From Candidatus Izemoplasmatales bacterium (lineage in GTDB: Bacteria > Bacillota_I > Bacilli_A > Izemoplasmatales > Hujiaoplasmataceae), in assembly GCA_050177605.1 (NCBI GenBank), contig JBFXGX010000033.1:1-10371 (forward strand): a stretch of DNA of 10,371 nt, written 5' to 3'. Of this stretch, positions 1,777 to 10,371 are shown piece by piece. Position numbers and translations under genes: made by a program. Below the pieces are notes generated by a model, which was not told where the DNA came from, did no database searches, and worked only from the letters and a program-made list of their open reading frames with translations. Numbering within the stretch: position 1 is the first letter of the stretch; every line of letters begins with the position of its first letter.

Positions 1777-3192
1777 ATGAAGTCATTTACATTTACGAAG
1801 AAACCAAAATCAGCATTAAAACTCGATCCTCATTTTTATCCAATTATTCTTAATAATTTAGCTTTTGAAGAGGCTGTAAACAACTCAACTTGTCCAACTT
1901 TGGTTAAGATTTCTCTTGAAAGATCGAATCAACAGTTTTCTACTTATGAACTCTTTGTTTTTAATGAAGAAGAAAATCAAGAAGAAGCTAACTTCATCTA
2001 TATCGAACGTTTTGTTAAAACGATACTATGGCTAAAAGGTGGATTCCGCCTATATTTTAGTGGTAGTCCTACTTTAGGGAGAAAACTGAAGGAAGCCTAT
2101 AGCACGAATGGACTTCGCGCGTTTGATGAAGTCTTTATGACAAAAGTCTATGATCATCCGTTCGAAGTTGTATTATGTAAATTTGAAGAAGTACCATCAA
2201 CCTATGAAATTTCTTACCCTGTGGGTAGACATTTGGATGGATACCGGATTGGATTTGATGCAGGAGGAAGTGATAGAAAAGTATCTGCGGTAGTCAACGG
2301 AGAAGCCATCTTTTCAGAAGAGGTTGTTTGGAGTCCAAAAATCCAAAGTGATCCATCCTATCATTATCAAGGAATCATGGACTCATTACAAAGAGCGGCT
2401 TCAAAAATGCCAAGAGTTGATGCGATTGGCGTGAGTAGTGCGGGTATTTATATTGATAACAGAGTTGCTGTAGCGTCTTTATTTAGAAAAGTTCCCGATG
2501 ATTTATTTGAAAAAGAAATCAAAAATATCTTTTTTAGAATTAAAAAAGAGTTTGGTGATATCCCTATCAATGTTCAAAATGATGGTGATGTTACAGCGCT
2601 TGCCGGAGCGATGAGTTTAAATAAAAATAACGTCCTAGGGATTGCCATGGGAACGAGTGAAGCTGCAGGATATGTGGATCAACTAGGCAATATTACCGGA
2701 TGGCTGAATGAGTTATCCTTTGTACCGGTAGATTATTACCCTCATTCATTTAGAGATGAATGGAGTATGGATTATGGCGTTGGCGTGGGTTATTTTTCTC
2801 AGGACGCAGTAATCAAATTAGCACAAAATAATGGATTTGTTTTTGATGATGGATTATCGCCTGCAGAAAAACTGAAAGTCATCCAACACCTTGCGAAAAA
2901 ACAAAATCCACTTGCACTCGAAATTTTTCATACAATTGGTGTATACTTAGGATATGAACTCGCATATTATGCTAGATTTTACGAAATAGACGAAGTATTG
3001 ATCTTGGGTAGAGTTACTAGTGGTGTGGGAGGAGATCTTGTACTGAAGAGCTGTTTAGCTGTATTAAAAGATGAATTCCCAGATTTGGCTAAAACGATGA
3101 ATGTCAGTCTTCCTTCAGAAATGAATCGACGTGTCGGACAAAGTATTGCGGCCGCAAGTCTTCCAGAAATAAAAGAAGAGGTAATGAAATGA
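1777..3192 (+). CDS. ROK-family sugar kinase-like protein with an approximately 150-aa N-terminal extension (471 aa)
   Basis: Phosphate-1 motif GFDAGGSDRK (residues 159-168), plus IGVSSAG, VQNDGDVTALAG, LGIAMGTS and VLILGRV, in the order expected for ROK/ASKHA kinases. It has a good RBS, and its stop overlaps the next start (ATGA 3189-3192). Confidence 0.8.
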   Translation: MKSFTFTKKPKSALKLDPHFYPIILNNLAFEEAVNNSTCPTLVKISLERSNQQFSTYELFVFNEEENQEEANFIYIERFVKTILWLKGGFRLYFSGSPTLGRKLKEAYSTNGLRAFDEVFMTKVYDHPFEVVLCKFEEVPSTYEISYPVGRHLDGYRIGFDAGGSDRKVSAVVNGEAIFSEEVVWSPKIQSDPSYHYQGIMDSLQRAASKMPRVDAIGVSSAGIYIDNRVAVASLFRKVPDDLFEKEIKNIFFRIKKEFGDIPINVQNDGDVTALAGAMSLNKNNVLGIAMGTSEAAGYVDQLGNITGWLNELSFVPVDYYPHSFRDEWSMDYGVGVGYFSQDAVIKLAQNNGFVFDDGLSPAEKLKVIQHLAKKQNPLALEIFHTIGVYLGYELAYYARFYEIDEVLILGRVTSGVGGDLVLKSCLAVLKDEFPDLAKTMNVSLPSEMNRRVGQSIAAASLPEIKEEVMK

Positions 3193-4031
3193 AAAACTTA
3201 ACTGAAATATTTGTTCCCGATGGGACAGTACAAAATGTAGCGATTGAAAGAACGACGCATATGGCGATTGCGGCGCATCAAGATGATATCGAAATTATGG
3301 CTTATCATGGAATTGAAGCTTGTTTTCAAAAACAAGATCAATTTTTTATGGGTGTGGTTGTGACCAATGGTGCTGGAAGCGCAAGAGATCATATTTATAA
3401 AGAATATACCGATGAACAAATGATGGATGTTCGTCGTTTAGAACAAATCAAAGCTGCGGTTTTAGGCGAATATTCTATGTTAGCATTACTCAATTATCCT
3501 AGCAGCGCTGTCAAAGACCCAAAAAATGAAGAAGTTATTCATGAGATTGCTTCCTTACTTGAGAAGGCTAAACCAGAGGTGGTTTATACGCATAATTTAG
3601 CGGATAAGCATGACACCCATATTGGTGTCATCATTAAAACGATTTTAGCTATTCGTTTATTACCACAAACCTTACGGCCAAAGAAAGTCTATGGATGTGA
3701 AGTATGGAGAAACTTAGACTGGGTAAACGATGATGAAAAAGTAATGCTTGACGTATCTCATCATCCAAATTTAGCTTCTAGTTTAGTCGAAATCTTTGAC
3801 TCTCAAATTATTGGCGGAAAGAGATATGACGCCGCAACCATCGGAAGAAGGCTAGCGAATGCAACCTTTAATGCTTCCCATGAAGTAGATCAAACTAGCG
3901 CCCTTACTTACGCTATTGACTTAACGCCGCTATGTTTAGATGATTCAATTGATATTTTAGATTTTATTCTTTCGTATATTGATCGATTTAAGAAAGATGT
4001 AGAGTCGCGTGTTTCAAAAATGCTTCTGTAA
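3189..4031 (+). CDS. PIG-L/LmbE-family Zn-dependent N-acetylhexosamine deacetylase (280 aa)
   Basis: Metal motifs AHQDD (HxDD, residues 29-33) and THNLADKHDTH (HxxH), plus VVTNGAGS and RRLEQ..AA.LG typical of the family. It is translationally coupled to the ROK gene, with RBS GAGG at 3178-3181. Confidence 0.85.
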   Translation: MKNLTEIFVPDGTVQNVAIERTTHMAIAAHQDDIEIMAYHGIEACFQKQDQFFMGVVVTNGAGSARDHIYKEYTDEQMMDVRRLEQIKAAVLGEYSMLALLNYPSSAVKDPKNEEVIHEIASLLEKAKPEVVYTHNLADKHDTHIGVIIKTILAIRLLPQTLRPKKVYGCEVWRNLDWVNDDEKVMLDVSHHPNLASSLVEIFDSQIIGGKRYDAATIGRRLANATFNASHEVDQTSALTYAIDLTPLCLDDSIDILDFILSYIDRFKKDVESRVSKMLL

Positions 4032-4058
4032 TTGAAACAAAAAAACAGTGAATAAATC

Positions 4059-4127
4059 AAGTGTGTTAGAAACAATTTTCCAGTTCTTGAAAATAAGAAG
4101 GAAATTGACCTAACACTCTTTTTTATT
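4059..4127 (+). terminator. Long imperfect hairpin with U-tract after the deacetylase (terminator or attenuator-like)
   Basis: Pairings GTGTTAG(4063-69)/CTAACAC(4110-16), CAATTT.CC(4073-81)/GGAAATTG(4100-07) and TTCTT(4084-88)/AAGAA(4095-99), with loop GAAAAT. It is followed by TTTTTTATT. Confidence 0.6.
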
Positions 4128-4138
4128 AAAAAGAACTG

Positions 4139-4147
4139 TGTTAAAGT
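4139..4147 (+). promoter_or_regulatory. Possible extended -10 promoter for etfB-etfA-ldh
   Basis: TG-T-TAAAGT lies just downstream of the hairpin and about 30 nt before ATG4178. RBS AAAGGAAG is at 4163-4170. There is no properly spaced -35. Confidence 0.4.
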
Positions 4148-4177
4148 AAGAGCATATCTATCAAAGGAAGCTTATGT

Positions 4178-4969
4178 ATGAAAATAATTAGTTGTATCAA
4201 ACAAGTACCATCCTCTTCAAAAGTGGATGTAGATCCAAAGACTGGTGTACTCATCAGGAGTAGCCAAGCGACGAAAATGAATCCCTATGATCTTTATGCA
4301 TTGGAAGCTGCTTTTGAAATGAAAGCAATGCTTAAAAATACAGAAATTTGTTCAGTTACGATGGGACCCCCTAACGCGATAAAAGTACTGGAAGAAGCAC
4401 TTTATATGGGGGCTGATGATGGTGTATTATTAAGTGATCGTGCGTTTGCTGGGGCAGATGTCCTCGCGACTTCTTATAGTTTAAGTCAGGTAATTAAGTC
4501 AATTAACAATGTTGATGTTGTCATCTGTGGGAAACAAACTACTGATGGCGATACAGCTCAAGTCGGACCAGAAATTGCGGAATTTTTAGGTATCGTTCAT
4601 GTGCCATATGTTACTGAAATTATCGAAGTGACTGAAAAGTACTTGAAAGTAAGAAGTCTACTAGATACCCATGAAGAAATCGTAAAGGTTCAGTTTCCTT
4701 GTTTGATCACGATAGATAAAGGTTCTTTTGTTCCAAGGTTACCATCTTACCGAAGAAAAATGGAGATGAAAGATCATCCCATCAAGGTCCTTGGATTAAA
4801 AGACTTACATGATCAAGATAAATTACATTATGGGCTTGAAGGTTCGCCTACTCAAGTAGAGAAGATTTTTCCGCCTGATAAATCACGAGATAGTGAATTA
4901 ATTCATGGAGATAAAATAGAACTTTCAAGAAAATTGCTCCAAATTCTTCAAGATAAAAAATTTGTTTAG
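4178..4969 (+). CDS. etfB: Electron transfer flavoprotein beta subunit, bifurcating type (LctB-like)
   Basis: Motifs CIKQVP, MNPYDLYALE, MGPP, LSDRAFAGADVLATS (NADH/bifurcating-FAD region), CGKQTTDGDTAQVGPEIAE, PRLPS and GLEGSPTQV. Confidence 0.95.
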   Translation: MKIISCIKQVPSSSKVDVDPKTGVLIRSSQATKMNPYDLYALEAAFEMKAMLKNTEICSVTMGPPNAIKVLEEALYMGADDGVLLSDRAFAGADVLATSYSLSQVIKSINNVDVVICGKQTTDGDTAQVGPEIAEFLGIVHVPYVTEIIEVTEKYLKVRSLLDTHEEIVKVQFPCLITIDKGSFVPRLPSYRRKMEMKDHPIKVLGLKDLHDQDKLHYGLEGSPTQVEKIFPPDKSRDSELIHGDKIELSRKLLQILQDKKFV

Positions 4970-4980
4970 AGGTTAATTCG

Positions 4981-6174
4981 ATGGGATATATTAAAGTAAA
5001 TCAAAATAATGTAACACCTTCAATAGCCAAAGAACTGATGGATATTTGTCCGTTTAATGCTTTTGAGTATCAAGATGCTTATTTGAGTATCAATGCGGGA
5101 TGTCGTATCTGTAAACTATGTGTTAGAAAAGGACCTCAAGGAGTATGTGAGTTTATCGAAAACACGACGGCATCCATTGATAAATCAAAATATAAAGGAA
5201 TTGCAGTGTTTGTTGAACAAACTTTTCAAGAAGCTCATCCTGTTTCTTGGGAACTATTAGGAAAAGCAAAAGAACTTGCGAAAGTAACTAAAGAAGGTGT
5301 AATTGCACTTGTCGTTGGTAGCGATACTGCTACGATTGCCAAAGAAGCGTTATCATATGGCGCTGATAAAGTGATTGTCTATGATCATCAAGATTATCAA
5401 TCCTTTGATGTAATGAAATATACAGATGTCCTTGAAGACTTCTTTTTGAAATTCCATGTAGGTGTGATTTTATATGGAGGAACTAGTTTGGGTCGTAGTT
5501 TCGCTCCACGTGTTGCGGCTCGTTTAAAAACAGGGCTTACTGCGGATTGTACAATGCTTGATATTAGAGAAGATGGCGACTTGCTACAAATCCGTCCTGC
5601 TTTTGGTGGAAATATTATGGCGAGTATTCACACACCTAATCATCGTCCTCAAATGGCCACAATCAGGTATAAAATGTTCAATGCTCCACAGAAGGAAACT
5701 CCTCATGGTGAACTAATTTATGAGACCATGAAACAAAAGGTAAACACGAATTCTTTAGAGATTATTGAGAGTAATCGACATCAAGCTTCAAAAGATATTT
5801 CTGATGCGAATATTATCGTCGCGGTTGGGAGAGCCTTTAAAAAAGAAAAAGATTTAGACCTTGTAAAACCTTTACTTGACCGACTTGGCGCTGAACTTGC
5901 ATGTACAAGGCCATTAATCGAAAATGGATGGCTCGACCCAAGAAAACAAATCGGATTAAGCGGAAGAACAGTGAAACCAAAGTTAATTATCAATTTAGGA
6001 ATCAGTGGTTCAGTTCAATATATTGAAGGAATGAAAGAGAGTGAACTGATTATCTCTGTGAATTCAGACCCTTCCAATAGACTGTTTGAATTATCAGATT
6101 ATGCACTCTTAGGGGATATCTATGAAGTATTACCAGAGCTTAATTTACTACTTGATAAACTAGGATTTGAATAA
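4981..6174 (+). CDS. etfA: Electron transfer flavoprotein alpha subunit with N-terminal ferredoxin-like Fe-S domain (LctC-like)
   Basis: N-terminal C23-P and C41xxC44xxC47, followed by ELLGKA, TGLTADCT, RPAFGGNIMA, RPQMATIR, ACTRP, QIGLSGRTVKP and GISGSVQ. RBS GAGG is at 4969-4972 region. Confidence 0.95.
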   Translation: MGYIKVNQNNVTPSIAKELMDICPFNAFEYQDAYLSINAGCRICKLCVRKGPQGVCEFIENTTASIDKSKYKGIAVFVEQTFQEAHPVSWELLGKAKELAKVTKEGVIALVVGSDTATIAKEALSYGADKVIVYDHQDYQSFDVMKYTDVLEDFFLKFHVGVILYGGTSLGRSFAPRVAARLKTGLTADCTMLDIREDGDLLQIRPAFGGNIMASIHTPNHRPQMATIRYKMFNAPQKETPHGELIYETMKQKVNTNSLEIIESNRHQASKDISDANIIVAVGRAFKKEKDLDLVKPLLDRLGAELACTRPLIENGWLDPRKQIGLSGRTVKPKLIINLGISGSVQYIEGMKESELIISVNSDPSNRLFELSDYALLGDIYEVLPELNLLLDKLGFE

Positions 6175-6187
6175 GGAAGGACTCACT

Positions 6188-7585
6188 ATGAACTATAAAA
6201 AATTAACAGATACAGATATCATCGTTATAAAGAAAATATTTGGTGAAAATCAAGTTCTTATCAAAGAACAGATTGAAGAAGATTATCATCATGATGAATT
6301 ACAAACTGTATATGGCGAACCCGACCTTTTAGTCTTTGGATCGACCAAAGAAGAAATTATGAAATTAATGAAATATTGTTACCAAGAATCGATTGCCGTT
6401 ACAGTAAGGGGAAGTGGAACAGGTCTTGTTGGTGGATGTGTCCCTTTAGAAGGTGGAATCATCCTTGATATGCACAAGATGAATCATTTTATTGAACTTG
6501 ATAAAGAAAATATGACACTCACTTTAGAGCCTGGTGTTTTGTTAATGGAAATTAGTGAATACGTTGAAAAAGAAGGATTGTTTTATGCTCCAGACCCTGG
6601 TGAAAAATCCGCAACAATTGGTGGAAATATTTCGACCAATGCCGGTGGAATGCGTGCTGTCAAATATGGTGTTACTCGCGACTGGGTCCGAGGGTTAGAA
6701 GTTGTCCTTCCAAATGGCGAATTAATTAAACTCGGTGGGAAAGTAGTCAAAAATTCCAGCGGTTATTCCTTAAAAGATTTAATGATTGGTAGTGAAGGTA
6801 CCTTAGGTATTATTGTAGAAGCCACATTGAAATTGATCCCGAAACCTAAATTTGCAGTATCCTTATTAATTCCTTTTCAAAACAGGATCGATGCGATTAA
6901 TGCTGTTCCAAAAGTGCTCCAGTTTGAAACATTACCCACAGCGGTCGAATTTTTAGAAAACAAAACGTTAAAATTTTCAGAAGAGTATCTAGGAAAGAAA
7001 ATTCCAAACGCTGATTTTAGTGCTTACCTTCTTGTCTCATTTGATGGAACAACACAAGTTGAAATCGACCATTATGTTGACAAGGTAAGTGACCTATGTG
7101 TTAACAAGTTAGGTGCGATTGATGTCTTTTTAATCGATACTGACGAGCGTAAGACTTCTGTTTGGAGTGCTCGAGGTGCTTTTTTAGAAGCAATTAAAGC
7201 ATCAACGACAGAGATTGATGAATGCGATGTTGTTTTACCACGCACTTATATTTCAGCGTTCTTAACATTCACACAAGAACTAAGTCAGCGACTCAACGTA
7301 CGAATCCCTTATTTTGGCCATGCAGGAGATGGAAATCTTCACATTTATTTCTGTAAGGATCAATTAAGTAATGCAACATGGAATCAAGTAATCCAAGAAG
7401 GATTCGAATGCTTATATCAAAAAGCGTTTGAATTCGGTGGACTTGTTTCTGGAGAACATGGCATCGGATATGCTAAAAAAAGTTATCTTGCAGAACAAGT
7501 TGGAACCACGCAAATGGAATTAATGAAAGGAATCAAAAATACATTTGATCCAAAAGGCATATTGAACCCTAGAAAAATCGTATAA
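6188..7585 (+). CDS. lctD: FAD-linked D-lactate dehydrogenase of the GlcD/LctD family, partner of the Etf (465 aa)
   Basis: Motifs RGSGTGLVGG, PDPGEKSATIGGNISTNAGGMRAVKYGVTRD, KNSSGYSL, GSEGTLG, WSARGAFLEAIKAS, GHAGDGNLH and SGEHGIG. The start is moved from TTG6167 to ATG6188 because RBS AAGGAAGG (6173-6180) precedes it and MNYKK matches my recollection of the A. woodii LctD N-terminus. Gene order etfB-etfA-ldh equals lctBCD. Confidence 0.85.
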   Translation: MNYKKLTDTDIIVIKKIFGENQVLIKEQIEEDYHHDELQTVYGEPDLLVFGSTKEEIMKLMKYCYQESIAVTVRGSGTGLVGGCVPLEGGIILDMHKMNHFIELDKENMTLTLEPGVLLMEISEYVEKEGLFYAPDPGEKSATIGGNISTNAGGMRAVKYGVTRDWVRGLEVVLPNGELIKLGGKVVKNSSGYSLKDLMIGSEGTLGIIVEATLKLIPKPKFAVSLLIPFQNRIDAINAVPKVLQFETLPTAVEFLENKTLKFSEEYLGKKIPNADFSAYLLVSFDGTTQVEIDHYVDKVSDLCVNKLGAIDVFLIDTDERKTSVWSARGAFLEAIKASTTEIDECDVVLPRTYISAFLTFTQELSQRLNVRIPYFGHAGDGNLHIYFCKDQLSNATWNQVIQEGFECLYQKAFEFGGLVSGEHGIGYAKKSYLAEQVGTTQMELMKGIKNTFDPKGILNPRKIV

Positions 7586-7609
7586 TAAATTCAAAAATCA
7601 TGAATAAAT

Positions 7610-7630
7610 AAGGCCTGCTGGCCTTTTTTT
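7610..7630 (+). terminator. Intrinsic terminator closing the etfBA-ldh operon
   Basis: AAGGCC-TGCT-GGCCTT hairpin with a T7 tract (7624-7630), about 25 nt after the stop. Confidence 0.85.
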
Positions 7631-7674
7631 ATTGAAAAAAAGTACAATAAGTTATACCTTTTTTTTCAAAACGG

Positions 7675-7683
7675 TGTTATAAT
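7675..7683 (+). promoter_or_regulatory. Extended -10 promoter of the RpiR gene
   Basis: TG-T-TATAAT is a perfect extended -10, 26 nt before ATG7710. An alternative weaker pair TTGAAA(7632-37)-17 nt-TACCTT(7655-60) lies upstream. Confidence 0.65.
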
Positions 7684-7709
7684 CGTAGTCGTAGAGTGAG
7701 GTGTGTAAT

Positions 7710-8555
7710 ATGAGCGTTATGCTGAATATGCTGGCATATAAAGATGATTTAAGTATGGCTGAAAGAGCAGTTCTCGATTATTTAATTGAAAATAAAGATA
7801 TCTTAAAAGACCTTTATGTCGAAAAAATAGCAGAAGCCGCTTATGCCAGTCCTGCTAGTGTTGTCAGAATGTGTAAAAAACTTGGCTATAAAGGATTTAA
7901 GGACTTCAAAATTGATTTCATTTTATCCAATGCAAAAGTCGAAATTCCAGAGACAAAAGAGTATGATGATGTTATTCTATCTAAAAACTCTAGTTTTGGT
8001 GAAAGCGTCATCCAAAATAATATAAGAATTCTCGAGGAAACATTAAAAATCCATGACCCTGTTGCACTTCACAGCGCCGCAGATGCAATTATGAAGGCAC
8101 GTCGAATCTTTATTTTTGGGAAAGGTTCTTCCTTCCTTGTATGTAAAGATCTAGAAATGAAATTAAGACGGATTAACAAACTTGCGATTGCTCAAGAGGA
8201 TTCGCATGAACAACTTGTCGATGCATCCTTTTTAAACCAAAATGATGTGGTTATCTTAATCTCTAACAGTGGAAAGACTCCTGAAATTGTTTCAGCTGCT
8301 CTCCTCGTAAAAGAAAAGAAAGCTAAGATCATAAGCATTATCAAACTAGGCTCTAGCCTCCTTGCGGATTTAAGTGATATTGTGCTTTATACAACCTCTT
8401 TAGAAGGCGAATTCAGGAGCGCCGCAATGACCTCAAGAATGTCTCAACTCTGCGTTGTAGATGCCTTATTCACCAACTGTGCTTATATGGATATTGATAA
8501 GTCGATTAAAATGATCGAAACGACCTATCAAACCTTTAAAAAATACAAACGATAA
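7710..8555 (+). CDS. MurR/RpiR-family transcriptional regulator (HTH_6 + SIS sugar-phosphate-binding domain)
   Basis: N-terminal LSMAERAVLDY...IAEAAYASPASVVRMCKKLGYKGFKDFK. SIS motifs IFIFGKGSS, ISNSGKT, SSLLADLSD and SAAMTSRMSQL. The start is placed at ATG7710 (RBS GAGGTG 7698-7703) rather than GTG7701, which lies inside the RBS. Confidence 0.92.
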   Translation: MSVMLNMLAYKDDLSMAERAVLDYLIENKDILKDLYVEKIAEAAYASPASVVRMCKKLGYKGFKDFKIDFILSNAKVEIPETKEYDDVILSKNSSFGESVIQNNIRILEETLKIHDPVALHSAADAIMKARRIFIFGKGSSFLVCKDLEMKLRRINKLAIAQEDSHEQLVDASFLNQNDVVILISNSGKTPEIVSAALLVKEKKAKIISIIKLGSSLLADLSDIVLYTTSLEGEFRSAAMTSRMSQLCVVDALFTNCAYMDIDKSIKMIETTYQTFKKYKR

Positions 8556-8559
8556 AGAT

Positions 8560-8583
8560 AAAACGGCCATCGCCGTTTTTTTT
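8560..8583 (+). terminator. Intrinsic terminator after the RpiR gene
   Basis: AAAACGGC-CATC-GCCGTTTT perfect stem with a T8 tract (8576-8583), 4 nt after the stop. Confidence 0.88.
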
Positions 8584-8619
8584 ATTTTTGAAAAAAATAA
8601 CCAAAGGGCTGGCGATAGA

Positions 8620-8647
8620 TTGCTATTCTTGTTTTTTCATTTATAAT
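8620..8647 (+). promoter_or_regulatory. SigA-type promoter of the anmK operon
   Basis: TTGCTA (8620-25), 16 nt spacer, TATAAT (8642-47). RBS GAGGA is at 8655-8659 before ATG8667. Confidence 0.7.
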
Positions 8648-8666
8648 GGAGGTAGAGGATGAATAA

Positions 8667-9827
8667 ATGAAAAAAATGGCGATTGGGTTAATGAGCGGAA
8701 CCTCTCTAGATGGACTAGACTTATTTATCGGAACCATCGATGAGCAAGCAGGCAAAACCCACATTGAAAAAGTCTTTTTTAAAACTTATTCTTATGAGCC
8801 GTCGTTTCAACAGAAAATATTGAAAGCGATGAGCTTAAGTGAAGGCACTCCAAAACTACTTTCGAGTTTAAATCTTGAAATCGCGAAAGTATATAGTGAG
8901 TGTATTTTTGCTAGTTTGGCAGAAAATAATCTTTCTTCAGAAGATATTTCATTTATTGCTTCGCATGGGCAAACGATCTATCACATTACCAAAGATATGG
9001 ATGGCTCTCCTTCATCCCTACAACTGGGGGATGGGTCCGCCCTTGCGGCGCTTACGAATATTCCTGTGGTTTCTAATTTTAGAAACGCTGACATCGCCGT
9101 TGGTGGAGAAGGAGCTCCTTTAGTTCCTTTTGTCCATCATAAACTATTACAATCCACAGAAAAAAATAGAGTAATTCAAAATATAGGTGGGATAAGCAAT
9201 GCAACCTTCCTTCCTAAAAATAGTGAATTAGACCAGGTGGTCGCATTTGATAATGGTCCTGGAAATATGATGATTGATTATGCGATGAGTATCCTATATC
9301 ATCAGCCATATGATTTGGATGGAAAGATCGCTTCCAGTGGGAATAAAATCAATCAGATGTACGATGAGGTTTTATCTCTTCCATATTTCAAGAAACTACC
9401 ACCAAAATCAACTGGACGTGAGTTGTTTGGTAATGAATTTACATCGGTGTTATTAACGAAATATTCGTCCTATAAAAAGGAAGATATTATCCATACTTTA
9501 TCCATCATTACCGCAGATAGTATTGCTTCATCGATTGAACAGTATCTCCCAATGGATAAGTTTCCACTTGAAGTGGTTTTATGCGGAGGTGGAGCCTCGA
9601 ATCCTTTCTTAGTTGAACGGCTTAGGAAGCAAATATCTTTCGGGAATGTAATTAAAGTTGAAAATATAGGGTATGATTCGAATTCATTTGAAGCATTGGC
9701 TTTCATGGTTCTTGGAAATGAGACGATGAATCATCGACCTAGCAATGTTCCAAGCGCAACTGGCGCGACAAAAAAAGTAATCTTAGGTCAAATCAGCCCC
9801 GTATGGAATGCAGGTGAAGAAAGATGA
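8667..9827 (+). CDS. anmK: Anhydro-N-acetylmuramic acid kinase (386 aa)
   Basis: Diagnostic motifs IGLMSGTSLDGLD, SHGQTIYH, LQLGDG, NFRNADIAVGGEGAPLVP, QNIGGISN, FDNGPGNMMID, PPKSTGRELF, CGGG, EALAF and NVPSATGA. Confidence 0.95.
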   Translation: MKKMAIGLMSGTSLDGLDLFIGTIDEQAGKTHIEKVFFKTYSYEPSFQQKILKAMSLSEGTPKLLSSLNLEIAKVYSECIFASLAENNLSSEDISFIASHGQTIYHITKDMDGSPSSLQLGDGSALAALTNIPVVSNFRNADIAVGGEGAPLVPFVHHKLLQSTEKNRVIQNIGGISNATFLPKNSELDQVVAFDNGPGNMMIDYAMSILYHQPYDLDGKIASSGNKINQMYDEVLSLPYFKKLPPKSTGRELFGNEFTSVLLTKYSSYKKEDIIHTLSIITADSIASSIEQYLPMDKFPLEVVLCGGGASNPFLVERLRKQISFGNVIKVENIGYDSNSFEALAFMVLGNETMNHRPSNVPSATGATKKVILGQISPVWNAGEER

Positions 9828-10371
9828 AATATATTATTGGATATGATGGTGGCGGAACCAAAACGGTGATTTCTGTCTTTGATACGATGGGTCATTTATT
9901 CTTTCATCAACGAAGTAGTGGCAGTAATGTATTTAGCGCAGGAGACGAACAGTTCAAATATGTCATCAGCGAGTTATTCTTAGCCGCAAAGAAACAACTT
10001 AAATTTGAAAATGAGGATATTATCCACATTGTTCTTGGTTTAAGTGGTGCCGATTTAGAAGAAGACTATGCTCGTCTTAATCGACTCGTGAATCAATTAT
10101 TTTCACCGATTCCTTTTACTGTCTTAAATGATGCTTGGATTATCTTGAGAAGTGGATTAAAAACACCATATGGTGCCACGGCGATTTGCGGAACAGGCAT
10201 GAATAGCGCAGCGATAAACCATCAAGGTGAGAAGGCAATTTTAAGAGCCCTAGGTTATACTTTAGGAACATACGGTGGAGGACTAGATATCGCAAGAAGT
10301 GGTTTGCATTATGCTTTTCGTAGTGAAGAACTCACGTATAAAAAAACGCTTCTTGAAACAAGAATTCCTGC
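9824..10371 (+). CDS. BadF/BadG/BcrA/BcrD-family sugar kinase (GlcNAc/MurNAc kinase-like), 3'-truncated by the window end; absent from the ORF track
   Basis: ATGA overlap with the anmK stop and RBS AGGTG at 9812-9816. Manual translation gives MKYIIGYDGGGTKT...GSN...LGLSGAD...VLNDAWI...ICGTGMN...LGYTLGTYGGG..IAR, open to the end of the window (182 codons). Confidence 0.88.
   Translation, partial: MKYIIGYDGGGTKTVISVFDTMGHLFFHQRSSGSNVFSAGDEQFKYVISELFLAAKKQLKFENEDIIHIVLGLSGADLEEDYARLNRLVNQLFSPIPFTVLNDAWIILRSGLKTPYGATAICGTGMNSAAINHQGEKAILRALGYTLGTYGGGLDIARSGLHYAFRSEELTYKKTLLETRIP

Follow-up and report, generated by a model that had tools for sequence, protein, structure and literature searches.

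The window analysed here is a stretch of 10,371 nucleotides from a Candidatus Izemoplasmatales bacterium (assembly GCA_050177605.1, contig JBFXGX010000033.1). Its central feature is lctBCD, three genes for a predicted electron-confurcating D-lactate dehydrogenase, which lie among genes for the catabolism of N-acetylmuramic acid (MurNAc). Kinases of the AnmK and MurK types form MurNAc-6-phosphate, from which MurQ gives N-acetylglucosamine (GlcNAc)-6-phosphate and D-lactate. The window is the beginning of scaffold C33 (16,189 bases), from base 1 to base 10,371; this scaffold is part of a genome bin of 1.94 Mb that has 66 contigs and is 89% complete. From position 1777 onward, all open reading frames (ORFs) of at least 130 amino acids (aa) are on the plus strand, and profile searches found every gene named in a first-pass annotation of the sequence where that annotation had put it, on the same strand. 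The features are as follows:

1777..3192, plus strand: K471, a divergent sugar-kinase-like protein of the ROK (ASKHA) fold, 471 aa, with an extra N-terminal domain of ~150 aa (fold match)
3189..4031, plus strand: de-N-acetylase of the PIG-L/LmbE family (PF02585, E 9e-16)
4178..4969, plus strand: LctB, an EtfB of the bifurcating type (7qh2_B, 297 bits, E 7.6e-88)
4981..6174, plus strand: LctC, an EtfA with an N-terminal one-cluster ferredoxin domain (7qh2_A, 415 bits, residues 3-391)
6167..7585, plus strand: LctD, predicted flavin adenine dinucleotide (FAD)-dependent D-lactate dehydrogenase of the GlcD/VAO family, FAD_binding_4 / FAD-oxidase_C (7qh2_C, 631 bits, E 7e-189)
7610..7625, plus strand: terminator-like hairpin and T-run 3' of lctD
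7701..8555, plus strand: regulator of the RpiR/MurR family, HTH_6 and SIS (sugar-phosphate-binding) domains (PF01418, PF01380)
8560..8579, plus strand: terminator-like hairpin and T-run 3' of rpiR
8620..8647, plus strand: promoter-like site TTGCTA-16-TATAAT 5' of anmK (consensus match only)
8667..9827, plus strand: AnmK, anhydro-N-acetylmuramic acid kinase (PF03702, E 2e-92)
9824..10371, plus strand: sugar kinase of the BadF/BcrAD type (MurK/NagK-like), N-terminal 182 aa (PF01869, E 7.5e-13)

The genes lctB, lctC and lctD (4178-7585, plus strand) are closely spaced, with 11-nt gaps and an 8-nt overlap, and their products were compared against all PDB sequences. In each case the best match is a chain of 7QH2, the lactate dehydrogenase-electron-transferring flavoprotein complex (Ldh-EtfAB) of Acetobacterium woodii. 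LctD matches chain C with 631 bits (E 7e-189, residues 8-471), and the next best protein, a glycolate oxidase, reaches 246 bits; LctC matches chain A with 415 bits, its N-terminal domain included (next best 259 bits), and LctB matches chain B with 297 bits (next best 183 bits). The residues that define the A. woodii enzyme were taken from its published description (PMC9232219) and mapped onto the window proteins. In LctD, the equivalents of all ten residues of the lactate/metal site (L80, R328, L332, E344, D346, H377, H384, Y386, E422 and H423) are identical; among them are H377, H384 and E422, which bind the metal, and H423, which is the catalytic base (PMC9232219). The ten positions are invariant in 78/78 homologues from related loci. 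LctC has the iron-sulfur (Fe-S) motif C23-x17-C41-xx-C44-xx-C47 and Arg205, which are invariant in 75/75 homologues. The motifs DGDTAQVGP (b-FAD), RAFAG (the RxFxG NAD motif) and SPT are all present in LctB; among its homologues DGDTAQVG is invariant (72/72), and the final P and R87 are each kept in 64/72.

The window set thus shares with A. woodii Ldh-EtfAB the same three subunits and their order (etfB-etfA-ldh), the one-cluster ferredoxin domain and Arg205 on EtfA, the b-FAD, NAD and SPT motifs on EtfB, and an identical lactate/metal site on LctD. By all sequence criteria tested it is an orthologue of LctBCD, with the predicted activity of a confurcating D-lactate dehydrogenase. The first-pass annotation had made the same assignment, and every catalytic or bifurcation hallmark that was checked is kept. 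Enzymes of the LctD type are D-specific (PMC8914356). In Fusobacterium nucleatum, a GlcD-type D-lactate dehydrogenase is likewise encoded with an ETF, as Ldh-ETF-Bcd, but that ETF is canonical (non-bifurcating) and its electrons go to butyryl-CoA dehydrogenase (Bcd) (PMC12630350); the window Etf, in contrast, has the bifurcation motifs and the Fe-S domain, and no Bcd is nearby. As for the start of lctD, the listed TTG at 6167 overlaps the end of lctC, and in the alignment the first residue of A. woodii LctD falls on the Met of an ATG at 6188 (codon 8); this ATG is therefore probably the true start.

The GlcD/VAO family also includes glycolate oxidase, D-2-hydroxyglutarate dehydrogenase and ether-cleaving enzymes, with alkyl-dihydroxyacetone phosphate synthase among the PDB matches of LctD, and the top NCBIfam name for LctD is GlcD (376 bits, under the cut-off of 568). 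These points would suit a dehydrogenase acting on some other D-2-hydroxyacid from the wall, for example the glycolate of N-glycolyl groups, or on the lactyl ether directly. We regard this as very improbable, and the least probable of the explanations weighed here: the ten lactate/metal-site residues are identical and invariant, LctD scores 631 bits to its A. woodii counterpart and 246 bits to glycolate oxidase, and MurQ is present in the genome and adjacent in many loci, so that no other etherase is needed. A preference for another 2-hydroxyacid such as glycolate had been named in the first-pass annotation as a finding that would count against it; by its residues, the active site is predicted to be of the lactate type. 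LctD as a direct lactyl etherase that replaces MurQ was considered and rejected, because the genome has MurQ and the LctD site shows no change.

The genes that accompany lctBCD include those of MurNAc catabolism. AnmK scores 437 bits with NF007142 (cut-off 435) and 421 bits with NF007148 (cut-off 387). The first-pass annotation had predicted murQ nearby, had taken its lack from the genome as a point that would tell against the proposal, and had proposed to look past position 10371 for it, for nagZ/amidase, for an ATP-binding cassette (ABC) transporter and for nagB. A search of the genome finds murQ, not on the window contig C33 but on contig C16 (13282-14148, 373.7 bits, cut-off 302). There it lies in a cluster for DUF5696, two ABC permeases, DUF624, NamZ, GH3, BadF kinase, MurQ and NagB, so that NamZ, the NagZ-like GH3, the ABC permeases and NagB are all with murQ. 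As in the B. subtilis-type MurNAc pathway, AnmK, a BadF-type kinase, an RpiR/MurR-type regulator, MurQ, NamZ, a NagZ-like GH3 and NagB are all encoded in this genome; the B. subtilis cluster has the order murQ-murR-murP-amiE-nagZ-namZ. The present system differs from the known pathway in that no wall-synthesis markers are found in the host, so that it would be purely catabolic, and NagA is not found; LctBCD, the PIG-L deacetylase, the divergent ROK-fold kinase and the GH4 and GHL10 enzymes are added.

A scaffold gap of 100 N ends the window and cuts the BadF kinase gene; this point is not the contig end, and C33 continues. Beyond the gap is a GH4 glycosidase gene (C33 10472-11632), and two GHL10 proteins are encoded within C33 11636-16189, one of 399 aa and a large one that has the domain twice. 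The order anmK-badF-GH4-GHL10-GHL10 is unbroken in relatives such as loci L011 and L029, and the C33 scaffold join is therefore credible. The BadF kinase has weak similarity to NagK_SO3507, and its full-length homologues in these two loci have 326 aa. The large protein (>1117 aa) begins with a hydrophobic, signal-like segment, and the 399-aa GHL10 protein is cytoplasmic; the E. coli GHL10 member DigH/YddW cuts denuded glycan strands. In loci laid out like the window, the GH4 gene comes right after the BadF kinase gene (e.g. L011:14687-15994), with 63-71% identity in most. It is of the NAD+/Mn2+ type, and NCBIfam gives only sub-threshold similarity to alpha-galactosidase. GH4 enzymes often act on 6-phospho-glycosides, and this one may be an analogue of MupG-like 6-phospho-muramidase. 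NCBIfam holds no specific name for the GH4, BadF kinase and GHL10 proteins, nor for the alpha/beta hydrolase, NAGPA and MupG proteins mentioned below.

The joint occurrence of these genes was followed through the GTDB family of the window genome, in all its 70 other genomes. Twelve of them have LctD, and exactly those 12 have AnmK. Nine have both on one contig; the lctD-anmK gap is 1.1-1.2 kb in eight, just enough space for rpiR to lie between them as it does in the window, and 5.2 kb in one. In the other three the two genes are on separate contigs; AnmK is <200 bases from the contig start in two, and LctD is on a short contig in two. MurQ is present in 10 of the 12 genomes with LctD and in one of the 58 others, the two misses being bins that are 90% and 82% complete. 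LctD, AnmK and MurQ thus co-occur almost perfectly in relatives, which bears out the genetic link between LctBCD and MurNAc catabolism proposed in the first-pass annotation.

For synteny, the window and C16 proteins were compared by local tblastn to 80 loci, the best 80 of 365 LctD relatives in 185,579 species genomes (56-73% identity). The closest are labelled Candidatus Izemoplasmatales/Izimaplasma, Xianfuyuplasma, Acholeplasmataceae, Mariniplasma, Haloplasmataceae, Anaeroplasma bactoclasticum and uncultured Bacilli/Tenericutes; among the carriers of the lct-mur pairing are a genome bin under the name Anaeroplasma bactoclasticum and a record under the name Acholeplasma sp. Within the flanks, AnmK is found in 57 loci, MurQ in 27, both in 20 and RpiR in 46. 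Either AnmK or MurQ is found in 64 of these best 80, so that the synteny survey suggested in the first-pass annotation finds lctBCD linked to mur genes in relatives. Any of AnmK, MurQ, NamZ, GHL10 and RpiR is present in 71 loci, and six of the nine without these markers are contigs of <6 kb.

The linked loci show two architectures. The window-type layout, lctD>rpiR>anmK on one strand, is seen in 34 of the 38 loci that hold all three genes, with median gaps of 146 and 132 bp; badF-GH4-GHL10-GHL10 usually come next, and K471-PIG-L often come before. The murQ-adjacent layout is namZ-GH3-badF-anmK-murQ-(alpha/beta hydrolase or rpiR)-lctB-lctC-lctD. Here murQ is upstream of lctB on the same strand in 26/26 resolved loci and at most 828 bp from it in 21; in L017, only 24 bp separate the end of murQ from lctB. 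In 18 murQ-adjacent loci an alpha/beta hydrolase of ~250 aa lies between murQ and lctB (e.g. L063:7221-7961); as a speculation, it might be an esterase for O-acetylated MurNAc. RpiR, whose best NCBIfam match is the MurR/RpiR family (155.7 bits, under the cut-off of 378), is the most conserved protein of the cluster: its identity is 67-89% in 44 of the 46 loci where it has a match, compared with 57-73% for LctD and 39-53% for AnmK in these loci.

A wider sample from the class, drawn evenly rather than ranked by similarity, comprised 398 other scored genomes from 30 families (two genomes went unscored), and LctD was called at E<=1e-120. LctD is found in 68 of the 398; MurQ is present in 67 of these 68, against 61 of the 330 without LctD. 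In the 68 genomes, lctD and murQ are on the same contig within 10 kb in 26, at 10-40 kb in 16 and farther apart in one, and on different contigs in 24; one has no MurQ. Seven families show lct-mur linkage. Together, the two architectures, the seven families and the joint presence or absence in one family argue against coincidence.

The sample also bears on what the pairing is used for. Families f1, f2, f15 and f20 have the window-type layout, and MraY is found in 0/82 of their genomes; the families with murQ adjacent mostly have MraY (12/12 in f7, 22/23 in f19 and 13/25 in f12). The pairing would therefore serve pure foraging in wall-less lineages, and recycling or foraging would be possible in walled ones. 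In the genome of the window itself, neither MraY nor a penicillin-binding protein (PBP) transpeptidase is found, which points to foraging on foreign wall rather than recycling. The window is a split version of the lct-mur pairing in a wall-less host.

Where the lactate comes from is suggested by what lies beside lctBCD. The published lct clusters of A. woodii, Anaerobutyricum and Anaerostipes include a permease (lctE), a racemase (lctF) and a LutR-type regulator (lctA) (PMC8914356), and it has been suggested that the permease marks out bacteria that utilise lactate (PMC8914356). None of the three is found here; the neighbours are instead rpiR, anmK and the BadF kinase gene, and in other lineages also murQ, namZ and a GH3 gene. 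Neither lactate permease (PF02652) nor the racemase LarA (PF09861) is found in the 89%-complete genome or, in the flanks of the 80 loci, among the 82 proteins scanned. This census took 61 representatives of 142 clusters of unlabelled ORFs (multi-locus clusters and singletons of 350-700 aa) and 21 proteins. It yielded NAGPA phosphodiester glycosidase in 30 loci, an Ig-like surface protein in 27, alpha/beta hydrolase in 20, MupG in nine and GH73 in seven, as well as Amidase_2, GH20, phosphotransferase-system (PTS) EIICB and peptide-binding proteins. In the class sample, PF02652 is missing from 59 of the 68 genomes with LctD, including 52 of the 57 in linked families. The missing permease and racemase fit an internal source of D-lactate, which MurQ would supply; unlike in the canonical clusters, the implied source is intracellular.

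A gene of ~520 aa 5' of lctB in relatives was considered as a possible lactate permease and rejected, as it encodes a NAGPA phosphodiester glycosidase or a GH73 glucosaminidase. The NAGPA-type gene is 5' of lctB in 30/80 loci (e.g. L029:6339-7901, L047:6442-7992 and L034:3938-5557) and is missing from the window. One may speculate that its product acts on the GlcNAc-1-phosphate phosphodiester that links teichoic acid to MurNAc.

Because gene identities, conserved residues, synteny and co-occurrence support it, we think it likely that LctBCD, by its predicted activity, oxidises MurQ-derived D-lactate from foreign cell-wall sugar in a wall-less forager. Several observations weigh against this reading. 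Three loci with full flanks (L048, L052 and L055) have no peptidoglycan genes near LctD, the neighbours being glycine reductase, ornithine-fermentation genes and an ABC transporter with a glyoxalase, and family f6, with 11 LctD-containing genomes (LctD 50-56% identical), shows essentially no linkage; thus, the complex is not bound to MurNAc everywhere. Nine of the 68 genomes with LctD do have a lactate permease (5/57 in linked families and 4/11 in f6), always at least 430 kb away when it is on the same contig as lctD. In the window, lctBCD is a separate predicted transcription unit, because a terminator-like hairpin of its own follows lctD. No operator is shared between the regions upstream of lctB (29 loci) and of anmK (34 loci), as searched by 8-mer footprinting with a shared-word threshold of >=40% of loci. 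In addition, murQ is on another contig here, and in long-contig relatives with the window layout it is about 31-38 kb from lctD; in genomes G063, G019, G020 and G036 of the family it is on the same contig, 32-36 kb from the lct and anmK genes. In the window-type layout murQ and lct would thus share a genomic island rather than an operon. Related genomes are also non-independent, so that the co-occurrence counts overstate the support and are descriptive rather than a test. Finally, at 89% completeness of the genome, NagA, permease, LarA and MraY are 'not found' and their absence is unproven.

Some of these observations would be expected if LctBCD were a general module for external lactate that lies in the peptidoglycan island by shared inheritance of a catabolic region. 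In favour of this, A. woodii and gut Firmicutes use LctBCD on external lactate (PMC8914356), lactate is reported to have a stimulating effect on a cultured relative, Xianfuyuplasma coldseepsis (PMC8397711), lctBCD is predicted to form its own transcription unit here, linkage is missing in the three loci and f6, and some other lactate transporter is possible. We nevertheless consider an external-lactate role unlikely, since permease and racemase are found neither in the genome nor beside lctBCD in the 80 loci, most LctD-containing genomes of linked families (52/57) are without PF02652, and the two architectures keep lctBCD with MurNAc genes in at least seven families, with MurQ in 67/68 genomes that have LctD.

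The direction of the reaction must also be weighed. Judged by its gene content, the host appears to lack a wall, to live by fermentation and to keep an active pool of ferredoxin: the genome encodes pyruvate:ferredoxin oxidoreductase (PFOR, 1725 bits), RnfC (315 bits) and three [FeFe]-hydrogenases. The NAD-dependent L-lactate dehydrogenase TIGR01771 is not found in the genome. Contig C8 (43737-44798) encodes a 353-aa 2-hydroxyacid dehydrogenase whose best match, of the VanH/LdhA type, scores 242 bits, under the cut-off of 540; this candidate may be a fermentative, NAD-dependent D-lactate dehydrogenase. LctBCD could instead run in the bifurcating direction, in which NADH reduces pyruvate to D-lactate and also reduces ferredoxin, as a redox valve in the fermentation of sugars or amino sugars. 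The missing TIGR01771 would agree with this, Izemoplasma have been predicted to be lactate producers (PMC8397711), and the A. woodii enzyme does catalyse the reverse reaction at 1.2 U/mg, although this is ~10x below the forward activity of 12.3 U/mg (PMC9232219). We give the redox valve very little credence: it leaves the close tracking of murQ and anmK by lctBCD unexplained, and the candidate on C8 makes a lactate-forming role of LctBCD less necessary.

A separate observation concerns L055, a locus without wall genes, where a glyoxalase-family gene is directly 5' of lctB (L055:7263-7655). The methylglyoxal route is a further internal source of D-lactate.

On the reading that MurQ supplies the lactate, GlcNAc-6-phosphate is formed with it, and here the genome appears to depart from the usual pathway. 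NagA (TIGR00221) is not found in the 89%-complete genome; in the family it is present in one of the 12 genomes with LctD, against 29 of the 58 others. Because NagA is not found, the PIG-L deacetylase and the ROK-fold K471, in predicted roles, may stand in for it by deacetylation and phosphorylation, in either order, before NagB. In L029, nagB is directly 5' of the K471-PIG-L pair (L029:2366-5505). In genome G031 the K471 homologue adjoins nagA instead. K471 is found in 21/70 genomes of the family, including genomes without lctD, and is therefore a separable module.

The label 'ROK kinase' given to K471 in the first-pass annotation applies at the level of fold but not of Pfam. K471 has no Pfam match at E<=1e-3, ROK (PF00480) included; the sole hint from sequence is TIGR00744 (E 1.3e-4), and a sequence search of the PDB gives a single match at E 0.76. 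Its AlphaFold2 model (predicted local distance difference test, pLDDT, 89.4; predicted template-modelling score, pTM, 0.89) was searched with Foldseek, and the top matches are the ROK glucokinase 2qm1 and N-acetylmannosamine (ManNAc)/GlcNAc kinases (E 1e-16 to 1e-13, target TM-score 0.73-0.79). Its Atlas neighbours are clusters of 'ROK family' proteins of ~460 aa. In 15 homologues the motifs GFDAGGSD (DxGGS), NDGD and GTS are invariant, and we take these to be ATP-binding motifs.

The stretch from 1777 to 10371 is several transcription units, not one operon, as predicted from the hairpins and the promoter-like site. A palindromic word like TATC-ATA-GATA is present 5' of lctB in 16-17 of the 29 window-type loci, and the version in the window (4032-4177) has one mismatch. 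A different word, AAAACAACC, is conserved 5' of anmK in 24/34 loci. The two words may be putative sites of separate regulators; RpiR is the proposed regulator of the cluster. The 9-mers common to the window's four intergenic regions are AT-rich, low-complexity words only, and an Rfam scan of the window gives no family at the gathering score. At the start of the window, ORF 1-1131 (376 aa, open 5' end, no Pfam or NCBIfam family) and the minus-strand ORF 1182-1589 (135 aa, lipoprotein-like) have no counterpart in the 80 related loci and are not counted in the feature.

The proposed route would begin with secreted and cytoplasmic GHL10, GH4, NamZ and NagZ-like GH3 enzymes, which would free MurNAc, anhydro-MurNAc and GlcNAc from foreign walls. 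AnmK and BadF-type kinases would form MurNAc-6-phosphate, and MurQ would split this inside the cell into GlcNAc-6-phosphate and D-lactate; the PIG-L deacetylase and the ROK-fold kinase would act in place of NagA, followed by NagB. LctBCD would then use D-lactate and reduced ferredoxin to reduce two NAD+ by flavin-based electron confurcation, with pyruvate as product. PFOR would oxidise the pyruvate and give back reduced ferredoxin, acetate formation would yield ATP, and Rnf and the [FeFe]-hydrogenases would dispose of reducing equivalents. The need to return ferredoxin follows the known enzyme, since Ldh-EtfAB oxidises lactate with NAD+ only if reduced ferredoxin is co-oxidised (PMC9232219).

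Both enzyme systems are already well known, and so is part of the idea. In Fidelibacter multiformis IA91, a muropeptide-dependent anaerobe, MurNAc-6-phosphate is described as giving GlcNAc-6-phosphate and D-lactate, and the cell as gaining energy when a D-lactate dehydrogenase converts this D-lactate to pyruvate (PMC11652737). In mycobacteria, the lactyl moiety of MurNAc serves as a source of carbon (PMC6572805). The available excerpts of these two accounts describe neither an Etf-coupled confurcating lactate dehydrogenase nor its genetic linkage to murQ. The oxidation of MurQ-derived D-lactate in the first-pass annotation had therefore been published before (PMC11652737), and the link between LctBCD and mur genes was not found in the literature: our search gave no report pairing MurQ or MurNAc catabolism with an EtfAB-type lactate dehydrogenase, or MurQ with Acholeplasma, and the excerpts of two Izemoplasma/Tenericutes genome papers, one of them PMC8397711, make no mention of an lct-mur pairing. 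What appears to be new, on the genomic evidence, is the recruitment of a known confurcating lactate dehydrogenase, with neither permease nor racemase, into MurNAc catabolism across Mollicutes-related lineages.

More tentatively, and with somewhat more doubt than confidence, we suggest that a complete and dedicated 'muramic-acid fermentation' is present in wall-less relatives of the Mollicutes (Izemoplasmatales, Acholeplasmataceae) and in their walled kin: a foraging island of ~50 kb in which the carbon of the lactyl ether passes through a confurcating LctBCD wired to PFOR, Rnf and hydrogenase, and NagA is replaced by PIG-L and a ROK-fold kinase. If so, these lineages would draw on the peptidoglycan of bacterial necromass as a major source of energy in anoxic sediments and in guts, and LctBCD would have a second physiological role that does not depend on feeding on lactate.

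In acetogens and gut butyrate producers, LctBCD has been seen as the enzyme through which lactate from outside enters metabolism. The genomic context described here suggests that its task is to remove a by-product made inside the cell, namely the D-lactate that MurQ sets free; in this way each of the nine carbons of MurNAc would become fermentable. To our knowledge, anaerobes cannot oxidise lactate with NAD+ alone, and the pairing shows how strict fermenters can still gain from the lactyl group. The lct-mur pairing could serve as a marker for peptidoglycan-eating anaerobes in metagenomes, and free-living, wall-less bacteria of anoxic sediments would eat the walls of other cells besides their DNA.

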